Shown: positions 228 to 51,080, counted from the first letter of the stretch. The stretch: 52,940 bases of DNA from Welwitschia mirabilis (GCA_051453625.1 JBOZIK010000001.1:10546550-10599489), one strand, 5' to 3'. Made by a program: numbers and translations. Notes: generated by a model from the sequence alone, not told the origin.

Positions 228-2126
228 GTTCTTTCATAACCTACTTCTTTGATTAATATTATGATGTTACTTGATCATCTTTTAAACTTGACTTGTGTAT
301 TACTTTATGAGGTTTTATGATTAGTATTTATACTTAGGCATTTACAGTGGTAAGATTAGATTTATCCAATCTTAAAATATGCTTATGTCTATGGACTTCA
401 CTTAAAGGACAATGCCTTCATTCTTATGCTTTTCTTTCAATGGTGTTAAGATTTTTAGTTGTTTGGGAGTGTTCTTTTTTATCTTTTATCTGGTATTTAC
501 CTTTTTCTTTTTGAGTGTATAATCATGTGGTAATTTCCAAAAAAAAAAAAAAAGAAACAAAAGAAAGAGATAAAGAAATAATGACCATGATCTATTATAT
601 TTTATGCTTTAAGAAAAATATGTAGTTACTATGATGTTTTACCATAAGTGTATAATTTTTTTCAAGAGGAACCTTTGGAAATAGTTATGGAACTCCACTA
701 GGAGGTTAGTTGGCCATGCTTCATGGATCCTTACTCCTCTGACTGTGGTTGTACTTCCCTCATCATGGAAAAAGCTGTAATAAAACTTTGAGGCTATGGA
801 ATCAATGGTATTCTTAGTGTTATCAGAAGAATTTCTTATTTTCTAGACTCGTAGTATTCCCACTTGATCATTCCACTTTTGAAGATTCTAGTGTATTTGT
901 GGGATGAGAGCATGTGAGTTCATTTCTAAGTAGCTTTTAATATTGACATTCATTGTTTTAAGCACTTGAATTTTTTGGTATCACTATAACCACTGCCTTT
1001 TTGAGTAAAACTTTATGACGTTTATACATTTTGTCAATCATATTTACTCAAGTGACTTTGTCATGTCATCCTTGGGAGTTTGCTAGATTAGAACTTAGGA
1101 CAGGTAAGTAATCTTCTCTTTGTTCCTTGTGTTCATTTTCATTCTATATTTCTTTGGTTTTTGAGTTTGGGATTTTAAATTCATTTATGCATTNNNNNNN
1201 NNNNNNNNNNNNNNNNNNNNNNNNNNNNNNNNNNNNNNNNNNNNNNNNNNNNNNNNNNNNNNNNNNNNNNNNNNNNNNNNNNNNNNNNNNNNNATTTTAA
1301 ATTCATTTATGCATTTTTTCATTCTTCAATGGGATCTTAATCATTTAGTAGGTTTCTTGCTGTTCTTTTATGTTATATCATTTTTGGTAAGCATTTGAAA
1401 ATCAAAAGAATATCTTTTTTTCATTTCATAACTTTTATGAATTTTCTTATAGCTTATGGAGTTTTGAGTTTATCTTGATTTTTGTTTCTATTCAATCATA
1501 TTGATTTAACTTTTAATGTTAGGTTCTCATCCTGGATAGTCTATTTTCTTTAGCCATAGTTCTCTTTTCTTGTGAGTTTGTCCTTTTTCTCTTGATTTTC
1601 ATGGTTTTCTTTCTTATTTTCTGTTTTTTTAACTTTTTCTATTAAATTTTGATACTTAAATAATCATATTTGAGCCTCATTTTATTGGTTGACATCTTTC
1701 TTTCTAAAAAATTTTTGAATTCCCTATTGCTCACTTGCTCGTCTAAACGACATTAACACGACTAGACGACAATGCGATATAACCATGATTTAAACCCTTT
1801 TTCCTTCTTTTTTGTTTTCCTCATTTCTTTATCATTTTTGGTTGTTCCTTTAAGAGACGATAACCACTCTAGCTTGTACCACCTTCTGGAACTTGTTTTA
1901 CTTGATTTCGTGTCCAGATTTGGGAGATTTCACTAAATCTTCAAAAATAAGGTATGTTTCTCTCTCCTCTAGTTTTTTAATTTTTTCTCCTGTTTTTTAG
2001 CTTTTTGATGCATAGTTTTCATGTATATCACTTAGTTTTTCACACTCTTTCATTTGGGACTTACATATTTGAATTTCACCATGTATTTTCGAGTTATGGG
2101 TATTGTGCGTTTTATGAGGTATTCTA

Positions 2127-2412
2127 AAATTTCTATCTTTCACACTCATTTTCTTGCAAACCATAAGTTAAAATGTAACAATCCTATAGGCATAATTAAT
2201 CAGTTAGATGCATTCTAAAATTCTACTAGATTAGATTTTTTATTTGAGCACTTTGAATTTTCNNNNNNNNNNAATTTCCATTTTTTACACTCATTTTCTC
2301 ATAAATCATAGGTTAAAACATAGTGGTCCTCTAGGAGGCATTGATTATTTCAACATGTTCTATGCTTCTACTATATTAGATTTTTTTTATTTGAGCACTT
2401 TGAATTTTCACT
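2127..2412. repeat. Degenerate ~140-bp direct repeat, 2 copies, in a retroelement 3' non-coding region
   Basis: acactcattttct...cata(a/g)gttaaaa...ttctacta(g/t)attagattttttatttgagcactttgaattttc occurs on either side of the 10-N gap at 2263-2272. Confidence 0.55.
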
Positions 2413-2744
2413 ACATGTGGGCCCACTTAAAACATAGCTTTTCGATTTTTCATGTATTTATCACTTTTTTTCTTATGTTTAGGAAATTTGGGATGCATTA
2501 CAACTTTTAGGAGGGAATAAGACATATTTTTTTTGTATTTTTTATAGTTTTTATCGATTCCAGAGCTCGTTATTGCACATCCATGCGATGTTTCCAACAT
2601 GTTTTCCTATTTTTGCATGATGTTTTTTGTGTTTTTGAATAAGTNNNNNNNNNNNNNNNNNNNNNNNNNNNNNNNNNNNNNNNNNNNNNNNNNNNNNNNN
2701 NNNNNNNNNNNNNNNNNNNNNNNNNNNNNNNNNNNNNNNNNNNN

Positions 2745-3600
2745 TAGCTACTGGATGGACCTCCTCCCTTCAAGCTTTTATCACAATCATATCAAGTATA
2801 AAATATGATTGTAATTAAAGGAGGGAAGGGGTATTTATAGTTGTACAATGAACTGTAATCCTAGACATCCATTAAGAAAACCCTAGCTGCTCACATGGGT
2901 CACTTGACCCCATTTATAATAGTATTTATTATGGATATATAAAATTAGCTGTTGTCCTATTCATCATCCACACGACAGTGGGGAGGATGCCCACACCATC
3001 TTCTTGTCTTGGGTTGTGTACCCGTATGATATTATTAGCCTTGTGAGTTGTGATCGCATCTTATCCATATGGTCATCCTGTCTATCCTCCAGACAACATG
3101 GTGGATGATGCTCTGTCATCATGTGCTACTGTCGATGCCTCAGCCTTTGTCCACATAATAAGCTATCATCCCCTCTATCATGGGGATGATAATGGGGATG
3201 ACACTCTTCCCAAGCTCCTCAAGCAGTGTAAATTGGTATTCTTCATCTTTAGTTCTTCTTCAATATGCTAAGTATTAAATTATGCCTAAAATACCTCTAA
3301 TTATCTAAGAATTATATGTTTTCATAATCATCTTGTTATCTCTTCGTAATCAGTAGAATTTCATCTAAACCTGTATAAATGTCCTGCAAAAGTACTCCAA
3401 ATACACCACTAAATTCCTACAAATTGGCATTGCAACACTACATGTTAAACCTGAAGACTTACCAGTGATGCCAAAGTTGCTAGGACTTGAGAGAAAATAC
3501 ATGGAAATGGGACATAAAAAACACACTACATTCAGAATTGTAAGTTTTCTACACATGTGTAGCCACAAGAACAAGGCACAAATTTAATTTTAAAGTTCAA
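2745..3600 (-). mobile_element. LTR fragment of a gypsy-type element (boundaries approximate)
   Basis: There is a reverse-strand TATA-like ctataaatacccc at ~2828-2840 and TCATCC..GGATGA hairpin motifs at 2960-3205. The reverse complement of 3380-3460 aligns by eye with 5935-6015. Confidence 0.45.
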
Positions 3601-28500: not shown

Positions 28501-30293
28501 TTTAGATTTTAGATTTATTGTCATGCTTATTTATAAACTTGGGTATGGTACTTTCAAAGATATTTGGGATTTAAACTAGGTATTTAAACTTTATGTTTTT
28601 ATTATTTCATAAAGAATTAACAAAGTGTTGGTTAATGGTGTAATAAAGTTAAAATTTTTATTATTTTGATCTTTTACAAATTTAAAAATTTTTAAGAACT
28701 AGTATGATGTAGACGTTTGATGTGCTAAGAAAACTATATTGTCTTGAATTTAGTAAAATATTTGATCTCTTATTTAACTAATGATATTACTCAAAGGATT
28801 AGCTTTGGTATCATTTTGTATTTTGATGGACTACACTTTTAATATTTTATAATTTAGGTTCTAAGTCAGCATTTTGAATTGATGAACTAGACAAAAAGCC
28901 AAAACGTAAAGAATTAATGACATGGATTAGCTTGATTATCTTCTTTGCTAAGGAATCTTAAATTATGACTAGGTACATTGTACTAGAAGTAAAACATGAA
29001 TTAAAACCCAAATAATTATAATACTCTAAAAATAAAAGCCCTATAAGGACTAACAGACATTATCTTAAATCTTTTATGCTTCATGTGTAATCCATTATCA
29101 TAAGTTATCTAAGACCTTTTTCCTATTATTAAGTCTAAACCCTCATTAAACATTAATTTGTTAATGGCTTTCATGGCTCTGATGAGGACTTATTTTCTAA
29201 ACCCATTTTCTTTGTGCCTAATTATGATAGATGATTATTTCATAAGGTGACTTCCTTATAAAGCCTAAGGATAATTAATACTTTCATGACATTTGTTACA
29301 TGCTTAAACTATTTGTTAATGAAATTAGATTAGTAATTTATTGTCTTTCGTTTACTTCCATCTTTGATGCATTTATGATTACTTTCATTATAGTATATTT
29401 GAATGTTTTTTTAATACTTTAACTAGGTAACCATTACTTTAATCCTTTACTAAAATTTAGAGGTCAATATAATTGATGTGTTAAGATCTGTTACATCTAG
29501 CATTTTTATCATTTTCTACATCACATTATAAGATGATACATCTTTCAAAGTTGGTAATGCTATGATGTATGTCTATGTGTATGTTTATGAACATGCACAC
29601 TCTAATATATAATTTTTTATTTGGTAATAATAAATTAAAAATTAAAAACTAATAAATAAATATGTATTTCTATTTGTAACATTTGAATAGATATTTATAA
29701 GTGTGGGAACAAAGGTAATTATAATATCATGATATGTGTAAAGATTGAAAATTTTTACTATATAACAGAATACTTTAATAGAGTTATTCTAGAGGTAATA
29801 AGTAGAGTCTCTTATATATAATGAGGGAAAAATGCAAGAGTTAAGTTTAGAAGAGTTAGAAATTAATTTAAATAAGGGCAAGGGATGAGATAAAATTTAT
29901 TCTTTAGGAGTTGAAGTTGAGAGAAAAATAATGAAATATCTTATAGTTGGGATTTTGAGACAAGCTCTTTATTAAGAAAATTAAGGAAAAGGTTTCATTT
30001 GTAAGACCTTGGCTTACTTTATTTTATCATAAATGATGCTAAGCATCATTTAATTTTGTATTAGTTGAAAATCTAAAATAAGATTTTTTAAAAATAATTT
30101 TTATAATTTATCTTTCTAAATTTTCACTTTACTTCTCTTCCCTCTTATGTAAAATACTAAGTGCTCTAGATTCTAATAACTCTACATTATATTATTTTAA
30201 TATTACAAGTTCATTTAATGTAGTTTAATGATATTTAAGATTTATAAGAACTAACCCATTTTTAGCATATAATATACTCATCCATTAATGGTT

Positions 30294-30309
30294 AATTATA
30301 TTATGTTGA
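30294..30309 (+). repeat. LINE target-site duplication, left copy
   Basis: aattatattatgttga is identical to 36522-36537. Confidence 0.9.
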
Positions 30310-30323
30310 TTTCCAATCGACGG

Positions 30324-31610
30324 ATGGCATATCTGAAGCACAAGACGAAACTAGGGCTTGGAAAACTTCGGATTAACAAGGGTGGTTTCAGTTCCAAGAA
30401 GCTATGGCATGCAAGGGAGGATTTCGGACAGACTCTCTTTAGGTAAGTTATAGAATCTCATTGATACCTCTACATTGATTTGATTTAAGGTTTAAAAAGG
30501 GGGTTGTCCCCCAAAACAAAGAAGACTCAGTTCTTCAGGGAAGGAAAAACCCTAGTTTTAAATATTAACGAAGGTGCTTACTTGGAGATAGAGAAGAAAC
30601 TCTAATACAGTTTAATTGATAAGTTTGTTTCATCCACTCCAAGACCCAGGCTTGATCTTATTAGAGAATGGGTAGCAACAAAATGGATGGGAATTAGTAA
30701 ATTTTAAGTTATTACTATATTAGAAAGATTAGTGCTTTTTTAGTTGGATAATGAATGAGATTAAGATAAGATCGTTACGAGAGGACCTGGGTTCTTTGGA
30801 GTGAGGGGACTTACTCTAGCCAAATGGACTGGGGGTTGCAATTGGATCCAAACCTATTTAGGAAATTGCCAATATGGATCCGAATCCATAAGTTCCCCCT
30901 AGAGTTTTGGGATGAATACCTCCTGAGGAAAATCACATCCCAGTTTGGTGAACTGATTAATCTTGATAGAATTATTATTAAATAGACGAGACTAGTCCTT
31001 ACTAGATTTTGCATTTGGATGAGATTAGAAGACACAAAGAAGATATAATTTGTAAAGTTCAGATCCAAATAGAGCATATGTAACCTTAAAGTTACCTATG
31101 AGAACCTCCCAGCTCCATTTAATATTTGTGAAAAATTAGAATACATCTTAAGAGGATGCATTTCTACAGAAAAGAGATGATCTCATTATGGGAGAATATG
31201 TCATGTAGGGGAAGAATTTCGAAAATGGTTGTTAACATTAAAGAAAAATAAAAGGAAACTTGTTCTTGTTGTGGAAAAACCAAATACAATCAGAGCATCT
31301 ATCGGCATAAACATAGAAAGAAAAAAATGATGAAAGTACTATGGTTTTCCCTAAGGAAAACAAGGAGAAGAAGGAATAAGAGAGGAAGTACAACCCCTTC
31401 TTAGCTCTTATTTAAGAAAAAGATGCTTAACAACCTCAAATCCATTAAATATATATGAGTCGAATGATGTGGAAGTTCAAATGAGAGGAAGACCAACAAT
31501 AGAACCCTTCGAGACAGAAAAGCTACAGAGAATGTGGCCAATATCTCCCAAGCTACCATTGAAGATACTTTGAAAACAAGGTCAAGCACCTAGAAAGGGG
31601 TGAAAACATA
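30324..31610 (+). pseudogene. LINE ORF1 (DUF4283-like region + zinc-knuckle remnant), degenerate
   Basis: LIDKFV...IREWVATKWMGI...RGPGFFG...LAKWT...LPIWIRIHKFPLEFWDEYLLRKITSQFGELI...RFCI...VTYENLP..F.IC matches the plant L1 ORF1 pattern, with many stops. Confidence 0.8.
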
Positions 31611-31614
31611 TTGA

Positions 31615-34600
31615 ATGAATTTTCTATCATGAATTGCAGGGGATTAGGATCCTCTTACAAGAAAAAGGCCCTAAGAAATCTTATTAATCAATTTAATATC
31701 AAACTAGTTTATTTACAGAAAATAAAAATAAGGGATGAAATGAAAATAAAGAATCTAGAGCAGCAGTGGAACTTTTTTATCTCTGCAGCCCAAGGAAACT
31801 TAAGAGGTCTCATGATTTTCATGGAAAAGGAGGCAGATTTAATTAATAGAAGCAAGAACCACCTAACTATCTTTCTTAAGGAAGAAGGCTGGACTATAAA
31901 AAACATCTATAGTCCTTAAGATAATCAAGATAAATCTTCTACATTAGGGGAATTACAGTGGACTGTGAGAGATAAATCCAAGTAGCTCATAGTAGGGGAC
32001 TTTAATTAAATGTCTTCATCATTGGGAGAAATTAGGGGATGAATACTAAAATCATAGAGGAACTTCAATTCTTAAAGATTTCATGGCACAGAATGCCCTT
32101 GCAGATGTTCCTCTTGCTGGGTATAAATACACTTGGTCTAATAGAAGGATAAGCAACAATCTGATAATGTCTAGAATTCATAGGATTCTCATTAGAAAGG
32201 ACTTAGTAAAGCTTCAAATTGAATCCTATGGTCTAAATAGAATATCTTTAGATCACCATCATATCAGATTCAGAATTGGGGCCATAGCATCCCAGAGGAT
32301 TCTATTTCAAATGAAACATTACTAGATTGTTAGGATAGAAACTAGAACTCTAATGGAAAAAATTTAGAACCAATATGATGGTACTCATCCATTAACCTTC
32401 CTCTATAAAGGCCTCAACAGCTTAAAAGCCCATATAATGGACTAAAGAAGGAAAAACAAAGAAATATTTAAATTTAAAAAGGACCTTAAGAAGAAATCTA
32501 GAGTATTCAAGCTGAGCAAGAAGAGGTAAGAGATTAAGATAGCCTTTATAATAGGGAATATCAGTGCCTCATAGAACTCTAAGAGATAAATGCTGATGAG
32601 GAAAACCACTGGAGAGAACAATCAAGGATTAAGTGGTTTAAGAAGGGAAACAAACACACTAGGTTTTTCTTCTAGCAAACCAATCAACACAAAGTAGATA
32701 ACAGGATCAGGAGGCTTATCATCAAAGACCAAATAATTAAAAGTGAACAAGAAATAGCTAATGAAATGTAGGCTTACCTCAACAGAATTTGGGAATGGGA
32801 CGATATCGTCTTGGTCTTATTCCAAAAAATAAGAGAATTTCCAAAGAGGACAATACCCAACTTACTAAGCCCCTGAGTAGAGATAAAGTCCTATTAGTTG
32901 TGAGGTCAATGAAGAATAATAGAGCTCCAGTTTCAAATGGGTGACTAGTTGAAATATTCAAATCTCACTTCTCTACCTTGGGGAATAACCTTCAAGATGT
33001 TATGTAGGATATTCTTTATAACAAATGCATTTCTGAGGAAATTAATAGAGCTAGGTTCATTATTATCCTTAAAAAACGGGATGCCAATAGACTAAAAGAC
33101 TTTAAACCTTTAGGTATTTGCAACATTCTTTATAGAATCTTTGTAAAAATCATGGTTGGTTGTATCACCCCCTTTCTATCCAAGGTAATCTCTAAGAATC
33201 AAGCCAGTTTCATCTGACCGAGGTATATCTAGGACCAAATCCTCTTTATTTATGAAATTATACATTTTGTTAAAAACCATAAATTTCCTCTTCTTATTGC
33301 TAAATTAAACATAGCAAAATCTTATGACTCTATTAGCTGGCAAGCTTTAGGTTGTATTCTCAAAAACATTAGTTTTCACTAAGACATCATCAATCTCTGG
33401 CTACATATGTAGGCTTTAGCTGAATTTAGTGTGGAGGATAACAACTACAAATCTAAATTTTTTCCAGTCGATTGAGGATTAAGACAGTGGAATCACCTAT
33501 TCCCATATCTTTTTCTATTTGTCGTGAATGTCGTACAGGGTTTTTAAAAAGTAATGGAGTTTTAGGTATCAAGATAAAAGGTCAAAGTTTCATTAATAAC
33601 CATTATTTAGATGATACTATCATCATAACCAAGGCCTCATGTCAGCAAGCAAGAGCTATTAAGAATTTCATGAACATTTTTGTCGAAGCAACAGGTCTCC
33701 ACACTAACTAGAGAAAATCTAGAATTCATACCTTGGGTAGAACTAGTATTAAAGAGGATGAAATCGCTAGAATTTTGAATACCAAATTGGGAGACCTTTA
33801 AGACATCTACTTGGGAACCTCCCTACAGAATTGGCATAAGACCCTTATTTGAAACTACATTCTTGAATTTATTTAGAAATTATGCAAATCCTGGTAGAAT
33901 AACTTTCTTTCCTCCAAATCAAAGATTATCCTTGTAAACTCATACCTAATCTCTTCTTCTAGATATATAGCTTCGTTATCACCCTCTCAAATAACATCAT
34001 TCAAAAAATCAACATAATTCTGAAGAAATTTATTTGGTTAGGAGGCAAAGATCAAAACCACATTTACCTTTGCAAATGGGAGATAATAGCTCGACCAAAG
34101 AAGTCTGTAGGCTAGGGTATCTAGAGACCAAAGGCCTGTCTTCTTACAAGAGTCCACTAAATCTTAAAAAGACTATCCAAGGAAGGACAATCATGGAGTA
34201 ACTTTATCAATTACATATACCCAAATTGGAGCACTAATCAGGAAGAATTCTACCTGAGAAGAAATCTTAGTAAAGCTAGAAGACATCTGATAAACCTGAA
34301 CATTTGCCATGAAGATACAGCCAAATAGATTCTCTAAAAAGATATGGAAAAAATGATGCTCATAAGAAATTTTGGAAGGTCCAAATTCCAGGTAAAATCA
34401 AAGTGTTTTGCTGGTTCAAGTATCATAATAAAATCCTCACAAGAGACCAACTATGTAAGAGGGGCTTCTAAGTTGAAAGTGCTTGTCCAATCTATGAATC
34501 TTGTCCTAAAAACACTAATCATGTTTTTCATTAATGCAATTGGAGTAATGAGTTAATAACAATTATGAAGAAGTATTATAAGCTCTATGACGCATCAAAC

Positions 34601-34700
34601 ACATGCATAGATGATGGGATATACTTGACTTATTGGTACATTTGGCGTATAAGAAATGATTTTATTTTCAATAGTACCTCTCTACCACTTTCAATAAATA
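31615..34700 (+). pseudogene. LINE ORF2: apurinic endonuclease + reverse transcriptase + zf-RVT-like region, with stops and frameshifts
   Basis: Endonuclease: MNCRGLG, VYLQKIK, IVGDFN, YTWSN, SRIHRILI, SLDHH. RT: W.EQSRIKW.KKGNKHT.FF, FKPLGICN, KLNIAKSYDSISW, YLDDTII, YLG. This is followed by W.SKIP.KIK.F.W and a C..C/H..F.C-type remnant. Confidence 0.88.
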
Positions 34701-35870
34701 CCACTAAGAGAATCAAGTGATATCATTCAAAAATCAAAATAGCTATGGAAGCAACTCTAATTGTTAAACCATCTAATCCTGACCTGTTTGAAGGATGCCC
34801 AGAGTTATGGGATAAGTGTAAGCTGTGGGATATGTAACCCTCTTGCACAAACTCAAGGAAGAATTAGGGGCTGATATCGTCCCATTCTATAGATGATAAA
34901 AAGGGCAACGTACCTCATTTAGGATAATATCCATCAGAATCACTAAATACTCTCTTTTCAAACTTCTAGAAATTCTAGTAGCTAATGAAAGGATTCCTTT
35001 TGAAAGANNNNNNNNNNNNNNNNNNNNNNNNNNNNNNNNNNNNNNNNNNNNNNNNNNNNNNNNNNNNNNNNNNNNNNNNNNNNNNNNNNNNNNNNNNNNN
35101 NNNNNNNGTAGCTAATGAAAGGATTCCTTTTGAAAGAAGAGGGCAACGTGAGGTACTCCATTTCTTTCCTAGTGGTGTTCCTAAGCTTTCTAGTGAATAC
35201 ATTAATCAGAAGGCGCTTCTGCCCTTATGGGGCTCGGGTGCTGAATTAATCAACCGATACTTCATTCAATCCAGCTGCTGCTTAAAACTTTTAGGCTTAC
35301 ACTTCGCATTTCTTAAAGCCCTGGATCTAGGGCACCAGGTTAACCTACCCNNNNNNNNNNCCTTCATCAAAAAGACACTGCAAGACACTCAGGAATAATC
35401 ATGGTACTTTAGAAGGTAGCTAATGAGATTAGGATGAGGGAGGCCCCTCTCCTCCCTGTCCCTGGAGACGTCCCTAGGATACTCCTGCTAAGAGAAAATC
35501 TAAGAGAAAAGCAACCATAAATGAAGCCTCTCACTCTGAGGGGAATATTGAATAAGAAACCCCTAGCTCTTAGAAAAGGACAACTCCACCCCTAAAACCT
35601 TAGATAGAGAAGATGAATTTGCCCCCAATTCAGGAAGAGACAGCTCCATAGTAGTTTTCAACTAAACCCCAAGAGTAGAGGGAGCAACCCCATGGTCAGG
35701 CACAAGAGGACATCAAGCCTAAAAGGAGCCCTAGTCCCATCCAAGAGTTAACTACAGATTCTACTTCAGAAGAGAGATAACATAATTCATAGAAAGATAT
35801 AGACATGGACACTACGAAAAGGGAGGTTATGGTTGCAATAATTCATGGGTTGAAGAGATGTCAATTTGTA

Positions 35871-36080
35871 ACCCTGGGAATCTCTTATAAAACCTTACCA
35901 CAAGTAATCAAGTCAAGTTACATGAAGAAAGTGTTTAGACTACACCTAGACAAGAATCAAGTAGGATCTGAAGAATTCAAGGAGATTAATCAGGACTTTG
36001 AGGTGCTGTCTGACAAAACGGAATGTGTTTTACTAGAGCACAAGCATGACAATCTCTTCCCCTTCTGTAGGGAATACTAA
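35871..36080 (+). pseudogene. DnaJ/Hsp40 J-domain coding segment inside the LINE 3' region
   Basis: ORF 35805..36080 reads TLGISYKTLPQVIKSSYMKKVFRLHLDKNQVGSEEFKEINQDFEVLSD, matching the J-domain consensus LGV......EIKKAYRK.A...HPDKN....EE.FKEI..AYEVLSD. HLD (CTA at 35946-35948) is one C>T change from HPD (CCA). Confidence 0.8.
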
Positions 36081-36521
36081 TCCCTTATCCTTCAGTTTTT
36101 TTTTTCTTTTTTTTGGCTAGTTTAATTCTAATTTTTATCAGTTAATTATCTAAGGGCGTTTTCACCTCAAACTTTACCCAGTTTACAATTCATCTCTGCG
36201 TTTGCTGTAAAATGTTCTTCTTCTTATTAATCAGTTTCCTTCTCCACGTTAAATTAGGGTGATCTCATCCTCCTTGTATAAATTCTCCTTCCCTTTCATG
36301 CCTCGTGCCTTGTTTAGTCCTAGCTCATGCTTGTCCTTCTATCCAGGGGTACCATCGCCTTTAATTTTGTTCTATTTTCAGTCTGTCCTTGAGTATCCTG
36401 TAGAATATTCTCCTTTTTGTCAAACAGTTTAATTCCCCCTATCAAGCTACGGCGTTTTGTGTCCCCCCCGCCTCAAATGTAAATTTTCTAGTTTAATATA
36501 TTTCTGTTTCTATTTCAAAAA

Positions 36522-36537
36522 AATTATATTATGTTGA
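36522..36537 (+). repeat. LINE target-site duplication, right copy
   Basis: It is identical to 30294-30309 and directly follows the A tail. Confidence 0.9.
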
Positions 36538-38289
36538 GAAAATGATTAGTTATTCTTGTAATTTTCTTAATTTACACTTGTTTAGAATTATCCTATAGTA
36601 ATGATTACTAATCCATTGTTTTTCTTCTTTTTAAAAGCATTGTACTCTATATGAAATCATTATTTTATTTAGTTTATATGAATAAGAGATTAACATTTTA
36701 AATCTTTTGCAATCTTCCTAGAACAACAACATTGTAATTATTTAATATTACAAGTGGCAATCCTAGTTTATATTTAAACTTCCATCTTTTAACTTGATAG
36801 CTAAGAAATATCTCCTCTTTTCTAATGAGTACATTATAAATCACATCAAGGTAAATCTTAATGTCTTTCTTGAATGTCATTTTTCAAGTTATTTCAAGTT
36901 GTTACAAAAAATTTTTGAGATTTTTCCCCTTAAGCTTAAAAATGTTTAAATAATAGTTTGCAATTCTATATTACTTGATTATCAAAAGCTAGTAAAATCT
37001 AAAGTACAAATGTTAATGAATATGAAATATATGAATAGATAAATTCAACTACATTAACATTAAGAGCTCTCTCTCTATATGTGTGTGTGTGTGTGGAAGA
37101 GAGAGAAAAAGAAGCATTTCCATTTAAAAATCTATATTGAATATAATGTTCATGATATAAATGTTTTTAGATATTGGTAAGTACTAGATTTCATTCTATT
37201 ATATATCTAATATACATATATTGAAGTTTTAATGTTTAAACATAGTTACAAGATTTTAATATATTGTAAATCATTATAAAACATATTGTAATTCTAATGC
37301 TTTATCAAAATCATAAGAACTCATTTGCTGAATTATTGTAAAGTTGATAACTTATTAAAATAATTACTCTATTCTGTAAAATAATAAAAACATATATACT
37401 TCTAAAAACATTTTGATAGAATTGAGTTCCTTCCTAAGTGTTACAAGTTATCGAGATACAAGTAGAAGTCGAGAGATCTTGAATTTGATCTATATCAGAC
37501 ATAAATTCTATAGCTTAAAGCTAGTAATACTAGAGTTTAATACTAGCTTGAGAGTAATTCTAGGAATAAACTATCTAATGACTATTAAAAAACATTGCTT
37601 GTTTCATGTAAAGGTTTTTAAATCTATCACCTACTTTTGGTATAATTTAAATTAATTAAGCTAAAATACTAAAATAGCTACGTTATAATTTTAAATGGTT
37701 AACACTTGATTCATTTTCCCTCCGGAGAAGTAATTCAACTTATTTGGAACCAATAATTTTAATATCTTTCTAAAAAGTTAACTGAAAAATCAATAGTCAA
37801 GAACCCGACCAATTAAACCTTATTTTGCTATAGCGTTAGTTGCTTAATTTTAAAGACCTTTAAGAAATCTTTTCAAAGAGTTCAATTTTAGAGATTAATG
37901 GACGTAGAGTGAAAGACACATACTTAAACAGCTTAGAGTTTATCGATTTATTGAATTGATAATTTCACTAAGATTTATAATTAGCCTCTTCTATATAAAC
38001 AGTTATACAATGTTCTTGGCATATCAATTTATTGAATGTGTGCACTTTTTCCATACACATTTTATTAAGTTCAATTATTTTCAATCACAACAAAGACCAG
38101 TATCTCTATCCAAAGTCACATTCAATTGGTGAAATTTAGACCACAAAGTCCCCTAAAAATTATAAAAGGATGGACCATTGTACATTCAAATACATTAAAA
38201 TTGAAGTCAAAATGCTAGAATACAATGTTATGCTGCAATTAATGAAACATAGATGGCTAAAAGAGAGCTTTTGAGGCAACCCAGGGAAT

Positions 38290-40560: not shown

Positions 40561-42156
40561 ATGGAAGATAGCCGAAACGAGAAATTTGACATCACAATGA
40601 ACACTGTCGCAGCAGTCGGTGGAGGCAGCGGCCGAGAAGAAGATCCGCCGATTGTCATAAAAATAAAGCAAAAACTGCCGGATTTCCTGCAATCGGTGAA
40701 GCTCAAATACGTCAAACAAGGCTACCGCCAACTCCTCAAGCACGGAATGTTCGTCGCTCTGTTACCAGCCCTTCTTCTGCTCGCCGCGGAGCTCGGGCGC
40801 CTTGGAACAGACGACATCAAACGAATGTGGGAACAACTCCACTACAACCTCTTGAGCGTAACGGTCTGTTTCGCCGTTCTCGTTTTCGTCGCGACAGTCT
40901 ACTTCCTGAAACGCCCGCGCCCAGTTTACCTCATCGATTTCGCCTGCTACAAGCCGGACGAAGCTCGCCGCTGCTCGATGCAGCGCTTCTTCCAGTGCAC
41001 GGAAGATACAGGAGTCTTTACAGACGATTCCATTCAATTCCAGAAGCGGATTTCGGAGAAATCCGGTCTGGGAGACGATACTTATCTGCCGGAGGGAGTT
41101 CTCTCGCGTCCGCCGAGCCTGACGATGCAGAAGGCGCGGGAAGAAGCAGAAGCAGTGATGTTCGGTGCGTTGGACGAGCTTTTCGCGAAGACTGGAATCC
41201 GCCCGAAGGACGTCGAAATTCTCATCGTAAATTGCAGCCTCTTCTGCCCGACTCCGAGCCTTTCTGCAATGATCGTAAACCATTACAAAATGCGCAGCGA
41301 TATTCGCAGCTTTAATCTGGGCGGAATGGGTTGTTCCGCGGGAATGATCTCCGTATCCCTTGCCAAAGACCTTCTCCAGGCGATTCCCAACGCCTACGCA
41401 GTAATTGTGAGCTTCGAAAACATTACCCTGAACTGGTACTTCGGAAACGAGAAATCCATGCTGCTCTGCAACTGTATTTTCCGCATGGGCGGTGCCGCAG
41501 TTCTTCTCTCGAACCGCCCGCGGGACCGGCGTCGTGCCAAGTACGAACTGGTGCACACTGTGCGCACACACAAAGGGTCCGACGACAACTCCTTCGGGTG
41601 CGTTTGGCAGCGTGAGGATGAAACTGGTTCCCTTGGAGTTTCTCTCTCCCGCGACCTTATGGCCGTCGCCGGAGACGCTCTGAAAACCAATATCACAACT
41701 CTGGGTCCTTTGGTTCTTCCCCTGACCGAACAGATCCTGTTTCTTGGCACGCTGATAGCGCGGAAGCTTCTGCAGATGAAGAAAGTGAAACCTTATATTC
41801 CAAACTTCAAATTGGCGTTCGAACACTTCTGTATTCACGCGGGCGGGCGCGCAGTGCTGGATGCGCTGCAGAAGAACTTGGATCTAAGCGATTGGCATAT
41901 GGAACCGTCCCGGATGACTCTGCATCGCTGGGGAAATACTTCCTCGAGTTCGCTCTGGTACGAATTGGCTTATACTGAGGCGAAGGGGCGCGTCCGTCGC
42001 GGAGATCGTCTCTGGCAGATTGCGTTTGGGTCCGGATTTAAGTGCAATTCTGCGGTATGGCGCGCCCTTCGACATGTTCCTCCGAAGTCACAGATGAATC
42101 CCTGGTTTGACTGTATTGAACGTTACCCTGTGAAAGTGCCCGTCGGTGTAGACTGA
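40561..42156 (+). CDS. KCS: 3-ketoacyl-CoA synthase (FAE1/KCS-family very-long-chain fatty acid elongase condensing enzyme), intronless, 531 aa from ATG 40561
   Basis: It has [17 protein letters not shown], two N-terminal hydrophobic helices, [15 protein letters not shown], catalytic Cys in GGMGCSAG (41332), His in [10 protein letters not shown] (41836), Asn in GNTSSSS (41935) and [16 protein letters not shown]. The ORF is open from ATG 40423, but ATG 40561 has a strong aataATGG context after a CT-rich leader-like tract. Confidence 0.97.
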
Positions 42157-49600: not shown

Positions 49601-50275
49601 TCTAACGGGGGGGATATTGCTAACATGATTCTTATTAAAGAAGCTCAACAAATAGAAGAACAAGAAGTTGAAAGAAGATACTACCCCTTCACTATTGAAC
49701 CAGCAGGAAAGGAAGACAAACTTGAAAAACCTCATCTTGAGGAAAGTTTAGAATATATTGAAATTTAGAAAAATCAACCTATAATTAGTAACAGGAATTT
49801 GACTCATTCTCAGAAAAGAAAATTAAAAGGATGTTGGCTAAACAAACTAATGCTTTCACTTAGACTCATGAGAATATTACCAAAACAGACCTATAATATA
49901 TCAACATAACATTTATTTAGATACCACAATAAAACTTGTTAGGTAATAAAAAAGGAGATTTAATACTCATATGTAAGATGTAATTAAGAAGGAAATTTTA
50001 AGGCTATTAAAAGTAGAATTCATTTATCCTATTTGTGATTCATAAGGGGTAAGTCCTATGATAGGAGTTAGATTTTAGACTACTGAATGCTACTACTTAT
50101 AAAGATCATTTTTCTCTAAGTTTTGTGGATTAAGTTTTAGAAAGAATTTCTAGTCATAAATGCTACAGTTTCTTGGATGAATATAGTGGATATAACCAAA
50201 TTCCTGTAGTTCTTGAAGACCAAGAAAAAACAACTTTTACTTACAAATGGGGTACATATGCTTTTAAGGTTTTAC
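46679..50275 (+). mobile_element. Non-chromovirus (Athila/Tat-like) Ty3/gypsy: putative LTR, gag, protease and RT start; cut by an assembly gap
   Basis: Gag: IPTFK...H...F...LRYFSFSLKGDAHLWF (47820-48000) and CPNHG. Protease: IEALMD...DGS...PIILGRS (49240-49520). RT: DHFSL...FLDEYSGYNQIPVVLEDQEKTTFTYKWGTYAF (50100-50275). The putative LTR tgtaac...ttca at 46679-47127 is weakly supported. Confidence 0.75.
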
Positions 50276-50375: not shown

Positions 50376-50413
50376 GTGTGTGTGTGTGTGTGTGTGTGTG
50401 GGTGTGTGTGTGG

Positions 50414-50475
<62 letters not shown>
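50376..50475. repeat. (GT)n microsatellite next to a gap
   Basis: About 100 bp of gt repeats with a few interruptions. Confidence 0.95.
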
Positions 50476-50478
<3 letters not shown>

Positions 50479-51080
50479 CGCACACGCGTTTGTTGTCCAG
50501 GTGTATCATCTGGACTACCAAAGAGACGAGACATATAGAAATAGAAATGAGCATGCTAAAACATGGTAAATTTTGGTAAAAAGGTGAAATATCAAAGAGA
50601 GCAGTTGTTCATCAAAGAATATATTTGAGAAGGTTTGATTGAATACGAACTTAACCCATGTATGCACACCACAGATACGCAAAATACTTCAAAAATTTAA
50701 TAAGAAGTTTTTTCGTATTTATTATTTTAAAACATAATTTTTCAAAAGAAAGTTTTTGAAAATATAGTTTAGAAGAAAGTCATTTTATTACAATGTCAAA
50801 TTCATTACAAAAATACAAACATGTTGCTTCATCTAATCTCCTTATTGTTATTGGAACCTCTACTACTACCCTTGTCAATCCTAATGTTAATGTCATCCTT
50901 AAATAACTTATATCCAATAAGAAACATGAAATCCAAATCCCTTTTAACCTACCTACTCTTGATGATATTAAGTTAAAAAAATTAAACGCCTATCCTATTT
51001 TTAATGGAGAAAATAATAAAGATCCCTTACAACATATAGCCAACATAAACAATTAGTACTTACTTTCAGAAATGGTAAAA

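Follow-up and report, generated by a model that had tools for sequence, protein, structure and literature searches.

We analysed a window of 52,940 nucleotides from Welwitschia mirabilis (GCA_051453625.1, JBOZIK010000001.1:10546550-10599489) and found that positions 30310-36521 are one dead, full-length insertion of an L1-type long interspersed nuclear element (LINE). Near the 3' end of this element, on the plus strand, lies an open reading frame (ORF) of 91 codons (35805-36080, with its own ATG and the stop codon included), which is predicted to encode a J domain of class A/B-like type that is broken in this copy. In this genome the J segment occurs in a family of poly-A retroelements. The reading that we favour, with about even confidence, is that the 5' exon of a host DnaJ gene was captured once by a LINE master copy and was amplified along with it as 3' cargo.

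The Pfam DnaJ profile (PF00226) matched the ORF at positions 35871-36020 (plus strand; profile positions 5-57 of 63) with an expectation value (E) of 1.9e-7 and a score of 31.5 bits, the curated cut-off being 27.8. A phmmer search against the chain sequences of the PDB returned 24 chains at E <= 0.01, all 24 of which were J domains, and the top matches were C. elegans dnj-12, human DNAJA1, DNAJB1 and yeast Sis1. These alignments were ungapped across helix II, the HPD loop and helix III, and the basic residues of helix II were kept. An AlphaFold2 model, built from a shallow alignment of 8 rows, had a mean predicted local distance difference test (pLDDT) score of 64.1 and helices at residues 32-46 and 54-69. 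On comparison of this model with the PDB using Foldseek, the listed rows were J domains or J-domain proteins except for rank 37, with E values of 0.016-0.56 and a template modelling (TM) score of about 0.5; none of the matches listed reached E <= 0.001. The ESM Atlas returned only a generic DnaJ cluster for the ORF. The stop-to-stop frame (35793-36080, with the ATG at 35805) comprises 95 codons; when the 3' tail was shuffled 2000 times, an open stretch of at least 95 codons appeared in 402 cases. Because shuffled sequence so often matches this length, the open frame was set aside as evidence, and the case for the ORF is its domain match. A preliminary description of this DNA, prepared from the sequence alone, had proposed a J domain here, and both its translation, which we reproduced exactly, and its domain call are upheld by these searches.

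The boundaries of the insertion are marked by a target-site duplication (TSD) of 16 bp, with the 16-mer AATTATATTATGTTGA present at 30294-30309 (left) and repeated exactly at 36522-36537 (right). When the two 201-bp junction pieces were shuffled, none of 2000 shuffles gave a common word of at least 16 letters, indicating that the TSD is beyond chance, and the longest word common to the left junction piece and 190 other pieces of the window was 14 letters. The 5' junction was crossed, with 0 differences, by contigs of 2806 nt and 2539 nt from two public DNA runs (X1 and X5, respectively; see below). The element is depleted of CpG, with an observed/expected ratio of 0-0.6 in every 200-bp step from 30400 to 36399, and the TSD could remain perfect in this setting because it has no C and only two G.

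Remnants of both L1 reading frames were detected between these boundaries, all on the plus strand. The ORF1 remnant (30648-31012) contains DUF4283 (PF14111) split over two frames, with E values of 1.8e-5 (profile positions 2-64) and 1.3e-7 (profile positions 63-123; 31.8 bits, cut-off 27.2), and the domain was found again on an ORF at 30770-30985 (E 1.4e-7). An APE-type endonuclease remnant of ORF2 (31632-32286) was detected by tblastn with the N-terminal parts of six plant L1 ORF2 proteins (best E 6.5e-7), and the corresponding Pfam match (PF14529) was below threshold (E 0.012, 16 bits). The reverse transcriptase remnant follows at 32598-33954 (PF00078, E 2.1e-12; tblastn E down to 2e-31), and the last recognisable ORF2 domain is zf-RVT at 34313-34708 (PF13966, E 2.7e-13); tblastn homology to the six ORF2 proteins also stops at 34708. 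The element closes with a tail of 7 A (36517-36523, plus strand), the last two of which overlap the TSD. Plant L1-clade LINEs resemble the window element in all of these features, namely an ORF1 with DUF4283, the APE endonuclease, RVT_1 followed by zf-RVT, and a TSD with a short A tail. They often possess a C-terminal RNase H in addition, whereas the window element has no detectable RNase H after zf-RVT. Pfam, tblastn and the shuffles therefore agree with the earlier proposal of a full-length plant L1 with endonuclease, reverse transcriptase and zf-RVT inside a perfect 16-bp TSD.

Copies elsewhere in the genome were sought in three DNA runs (X1, X5 and X7, as Logan contigs, carrying two organism labels) and one RNA run, all aligned to positions 30000-36800 at 80% likeness. 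Counts and depths are given as triplets in the order X1/X5/X7; summed contig depth is not copy number, and our conclusions rest on the numbers of contigs and on how they compare with the flanks. Both organism labels have the same insertion without difference and therefore do not constitute independent species evidence. Among the X1 contigs, 13345 of 22388 were less than 90% alike, so that most represent old paralogues and not the window locus. No further copy of the element was found within the window by blastn or tblastn.

The J segment was well represented among these paralogues. Contigs with a shared majority letter differing from the window copy numbered 93/101/80 at position 35832 and 58/63/42 at 35863, two sites near the start of the J ORF, and 60/71/53 at 36041, 26/15/17 at 36019 and 25/16/14 at 36027. 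Summed depth was 810-1087 / 1221-1335 / 390-540 in the J bins (35675-36128), 779-817 / 901-943 / 391-451 in two zf-RVT bins and 332-674 / 393-748 / 122-259 in the bins of the linker that separates them. It was 92/72/33 in the middle of the 3' untranslated region (UTR; 36129-36355), as against 754/671/215 at 36356-36582, and 16/13/3 in the right flank. The reverse transcriptase core was deeper (about 1900-3400 in X1), and we attribute this excess to cross-mapping of more distant L1 families. At the 5' end, depth was 97/149/27 in bin 30227-30453 as against 3423/3836/1527 in the adjoining next bin, and 72/63/35 contigs lost homology just before 30520. The low-copy part of the 5' UTR (30310-30520, plus strand) is delimited in this way, and related copies therefore differ in their 5' UTR, a common situation among L1 lineages. 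At the 3' end, 52 X1 contigs ran past 36523 into A-rich and mutually unlike sequence (agreement 0.46), and a retroelement 3' end is therefore shared among them.

These counts bear on the alternative that the preliminary description had kept in reserve, a one-off capture or 3' transduction of host sequence that would be private to the window copy. The position of the J segment, 3' of everything recognisable as LINE, is what such an event would give, but dozens of diverged J contigs in each of three runs (42-101 per run at 35832 and 35863, in answer to the question raised there of whether other copies have the segment), together with the 52 contigs that have the same 3' end, contradict it. A private transduction is therefore excluded for practical purposes, and we give it very little weight.

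The HPD position of the window copy reads H-L-D (codons CAC CTA GAC, 35943-35951), and this copy would, as it stands, be a J-domain remnant and not a competent J domain. The ungapped likeness to the J domains of the class A/B Hsp40s dnj-12, DNAJA1, DNAJB1 and Sis1 is thus accompanied by two differences from them, the H-L-D reading and the absence of a following G/F region or substrate-binding domains. An index of public runs listed no RNA run for the sequence; in the single RNA run examined (X17), 95 reads fell on 30000-36800, none of them at least 95% alike. Four of the reads match from 35968 on and come from a relative less than 90% alike. Upstream of that point they did not align, but their letters there are co-linear with the J ORF and, in its frame, give L-H-P-N-K-K-P-A-G, which shows that a diverged copy with the J segment is transcribed. 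HLD in the window copy and HPN in the reads are each one transition away from HPD, and most of the places that differ in X1 (1800 of 2279) are transitions. The earlier guess that the leucine of HLD derives from a proline fits the HPN of the four reads. An intact HPD was seen neither in the window copy nor in the X17 reads. Of the five majority differences listed in the J ORF, four are non-synonymous (V14L, Q24P, T76M and V79F) and one is silent.

Two runs of N lie between zf-RVT and the J segment, and it was necessary to consider that a J-bearing contig had been wrongly scaffolded onto the LINE across them. The 100-N gap (35008-35107) is flanked by identical 30-mers (34978-35007 and 35108-35137) and is therefore an unmerged contig overlap. 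Two joints across it, 34946>35157 and 34995>35130, were each present in one contig per run in the three DNA runs, and three more bridging forms were found among the public-run contigs. This gap adds 130 false bases, and apparent reading frames shift by one. The 10-N gap (35351-35360) is bridged by a 620-nt X1 contig from a diverged copy, which is co-linear with 35216-35786 over 581 letters with 99 differences and 12 gaps. Independent contigs, from up to three runs, thus bridge both gaps, and the TSD pairs the 5' end of the LINE with the end of the J-bearing piece. No sign of the misjoin that the preliminary description had named as a danger was seen at either gap, and we regard an assembly artefact as most improbable. 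A near-repeat lies beside the 100-N gap (AAAAGGGCAACGT at 34899 and AAGAGGGCAACGT at 35137), which points to a short tandem duplication as a possible cause of the break in the assembly.

The linker between zf-RVT and the J ORF (34709-35804, plus strand), which contains both gaps, has no recognisable homology. The J ORF starts about 1.1 kb past zf-RVT and 440 bp before the A tail. No Pfam family was found in the linker at E <= 10, and no RNase H was found there by a hidden Markov model made from the last 260 residues of six relatives, which detected only the end motif of zf-RVT; one BLASTP alignment at the place expected for RNase H had an E value of 0.48. An 81-residue linker ORF gave no usable match in the ESM Atlas. 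A stretch of 79 codons without a stop (35110-35349) may, judging from its position and open frame, be the C-terminus of ORF2, with non-coding sequence after it. All three frames from 35349 to the ATG of the J ORF show the stop density of non-coding sequence. In the J frame itself, 12 stops were counted in the 144 codons upstream of the ORF, which is again the non-coding level and rules out a longer decayed ORF upstream in that frame. The earlier placement of the J segment downstream of zf-RVT and within the element was borne out. The J ORF is not contiguous with ORF2.

Linkage of zf-RVT to the J segment in other copies was pieced together from overlapping short contigs, with no single long molecule. 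Two J-carrying X5 contigs match the window at 35652-35998 and 35664-35993, and their 242 and 378 upstream letters are unlike the window. Linker sites at 35462-35647 were carried by only 0-11 contigs, as compared with 42-101 at 35832 and 35863. This points to a linker that evolves much faster than the J segment or to a different upstream context in some of the J-bearing copies. These observations could also indicate that the J segment and the 3' terminus (about 35650-36521) form a separate short, non-autonomous poly-A retroposon, or belong to another LINE family, and became attached to this LINE at this one site only, through a template switch during a single insertion event; a single enclosing TSD pair would be expected from such a chimera as well. 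The 620-nt contig argues otherwise, since its co-linearity starts at 35216, inside the stretch that is open in the ORF2 frame, and ends no more than 20 nt short of the J ORF. Several different contigs connect 349xx with 351xx, the linker bins are only 2-3 times shallower than the J bins, and no internal A tract is present at the junction. More generally, no internal A tract that would represent an older 3' end was visible in 34709-35804, where the 110 N could conceal one, and no convincing TSDs of a nested insertion were found around the J segment. We therefore consider a separate retroposon unlikely.

The 3' UTR (36081-36516, plus strand) contains, within 36101-36435, a pyrimidine-rich motif of 28 nt in three diverged copies, at 36101, 36215 and 36408; the motif ends in AGTTTAAT-like sequence. 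Contigs from other copies join 36245>36476, 36396>36476 and 36382>36478, skipping 79-230 bases, and the number of units therefore varies in the 3' UTR of the family, of which the middle is variable and the last 170 bp are conserved. An Rfam search of 34600-36700 gave only a chance-level match (E 0.85). A family member in which most of the J ORF is missing, along with the middle part of the 3' UTR, is represented by one X5 contig (depth 8.6), where 20 other letters stand at the joint 35826>36474.

How the J segment came to lie in this LINE family can be approached from the observations that the domain is present, that the window element is a single insertion, and that the segment is multi-copy with a shared 3' end. 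In the reading that we favour, a LINE master copy would have acquired, once, the 5' coding part of a host gene of DnaJ type, most probably by read-through 3' transduction or by a template switch. The subfamily would then have spread the J segment by ordinary target-primed reverse transcription, and the J ORF would have travelled as 3' UTR cargo, presumably of no use to the element. The domain type, class A/B-like and normally N-terminal, and the ATG of the J ORF itself would fit a first coding exon captured from a host gene of DnaJ type. The status of cargo is consistent with the non-coding character of the J frame upstream of the ORF, with the lack of linker homology and with the broken HPD in both the window copy and the reads.

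Several observations weigh against capture as cargo. The J bins equal those of zf-RVT in depth; they exceed the linker bins on their left by a factor of 2-3 and the 3' UTR bin on their right about tenfold. Selection acting on a coding module in master copies would produce such an island of conservation. The ORF has retained its own ATG, and its domain is complete through helix III. An A-rich remnant upstream of the J segment was not found within the element, where the 10-N gap could hide one. A host parent gene would be out of reach in the protein collections, from which the host proteome seems to be absent, given that the 3-ketoacyl-CoA synthase (KCS) protein encoded elsewhere in the window is not among them. 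The depth argument itself is to be read with the reservation that summed depth is not copy number, and the zf-RVT-J linkage comes from overlapping short contigs.

The same observations may indicate that the J ORF is a working part of the LINE lineage, as a third small protein or, in intact masters, as an extension of ORF2 that would dock host Hsp70 through HPD, and that would aid folding of the ORF2 protein or assembly of the ribonucleoprotein, or interfere with J-protein/Hsp70 pathways of the host. Apart from a depth that equals that of zf-RVT and exceeds that of both flanks in three DNA runs, this possibility would account for the retention of the ATG and of the complete helix II-loop-helix III unit, ungapped against DNAJA1 and dnj-12. 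HLD and HPN, each one transition from HPD where transitions dominate the X1 differences, could be decayed forms of an intact motif, and J-like copies are transcribed at a low level. On the other hand, no HPD copy was seen, and four of the five listed majority differences are non-synonymous. The ORF also lies behind about 450-1100 nt of sequence at non-coding stop density, and a third cistron would therefore need re-initiation or a transcript of its own. We consider a working J ORF possible but appreciably short of probable, and recruitment of Hsp70 by the LINE through its J domain is, on the sequence data, slightly disfavoured.

Searches among protein relatives add to the evidence against such a function. 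The nearest 77 proteins (1001-2855 residues) are plant L1 ORF2 products, and DnaJ (PF00226) was found in 0 of the 77, while RNase H (PF13456) follows zf-RVT in 45. Three of the 77 ORF2 gene models contain host-type or foreign domains (BTB, PPR and RVT_2, in P0044, P0072 and P0061), and odd domain attachments therefore occur, possible annotation chimeras included. An exhaustive phmmer search with the J ORF among 1.84 billion representatives gave 12 matches at E <= 0.001 and none at E <= 1e-10; two of the 12 (P0001 and P0003) were repeat artefacts, and the seven that were inspected were metagenomic or unnamed, one being a bacterial CbpA. The best real J proteins in this set were metagenomic and 41-47% identical. 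A word-based search among longer proteins gave 26 candidates, none at E <= 0.001, and a scan of metagenome contigs gave 148 pattern matches, none of which was confirmed. Neither the J ORF nor the KCS protein of the window had an exact match in a collection of 15 billion proteins. Because the host proteome seems to be absent from the protein collections, the missing host parent gene is uninformative.

Full-text searches of the literature brought up no J-domain-bearing LINE or other retrotransposon, and thus nothing comparable to a functional J-bearing LINE. A survey of L1 domains in 503 genomes gives DUF4283 as the dominant ORF1 domain of plants (PMC5203782). DnaJ does not occur in the main text of that survey, whose supplementary domain tables could list rare ORF2 domains.

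The remainder of the window contains an intact, intronless KCS gene at 40561-42156 (plus strand; FAE1_CUT1_RppA, E 4e-139), with a G+C content much above that of its surroundings. An RVT_1 fragment of another retroelement lies at 50134-50274 (plus strand; E 0.0036, below the cut-off); a 100-N gap cuts it, and a long GT microsatellite follows (about 50376-50480). The G+C content of the whole window is 29.4%, its repeats have almost no CpG, and most differences between copies are transitions. The published value for Welwitschia is 29.07%, a resemblance in composition only.

The gain of domains and the transduction of exons by LINEs are already known; here a LINE lineage has multiplied a J-domain ORF. 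3' transduction is common L1 behaviour, and the SVA_F1 lineage reportedly carries an exon of MAST2 in a subfamily founded by transduction. In those cases too, host sequence lies at the end of a retroelement, within the TSD, and is co-amplified. Unlike transduction of the SVA_F1 type, the cargo here is a whole domain with its own start codon in dozens of copies, the J segment is kept as well as the C-terminal region of ORF2, and no internal older poly-A was found. A second parallel is provided by LINEs with accessory domains. A plant L1 lineage acquired RNase H, and Kapitonov and Jurka are said to have described, in 2003, domains of the esterase and PHD types in CR1-like elements. A viral helicase is present in ORF2 of lepidopteran TRAS elements, according to PMC5563155. 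These are likewise non-LTR lineages with a domain of foreign origin. However, all of those domains are found within an intact ORF2 and are retained from family to family; the J domain, in contrast, occupies a short ORF of its own well behind ORF2, and the data examined showed no intact copy of it.

For a J domain in a genomic parasite there is a precedent in the large and small T antigens of polyomaviruses, in which the J domain engages Hsc70. SILENZIO, a small J protein of Arabidopsis, silences methylated transposons together with HSP70s (PMC8616336), and is a precedent for a J protein with HSP70 at transposons; a functional parallel to either is speculation. With these precedents in mind, we tentatively raise the possibility, which we hold to be rather improbable, that a plant L1 lineage has a third cistron for a small J protein of its own, maintained in master copies by selection, which would serve as a recruiter of Hsp70 for folding of the ORF2 protein or ribonucleoprotein assembly, or as a decoy for a SILENZIO-like complex. 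A decoy would be especially apt in a genome so heavily methylated and deaminated.

If the J ORF is used, this would be the first known retrotransposon with its own recruiter of Hsp70, and replication of LINEs, or their escape from silencing, would be linked to chaperones, as in polyomaviruses. If it is only cargo, a complete host domain with a start codon has been multiplied to dozens of genomic copies, and these J copies would be raw material for new J-domain genes.

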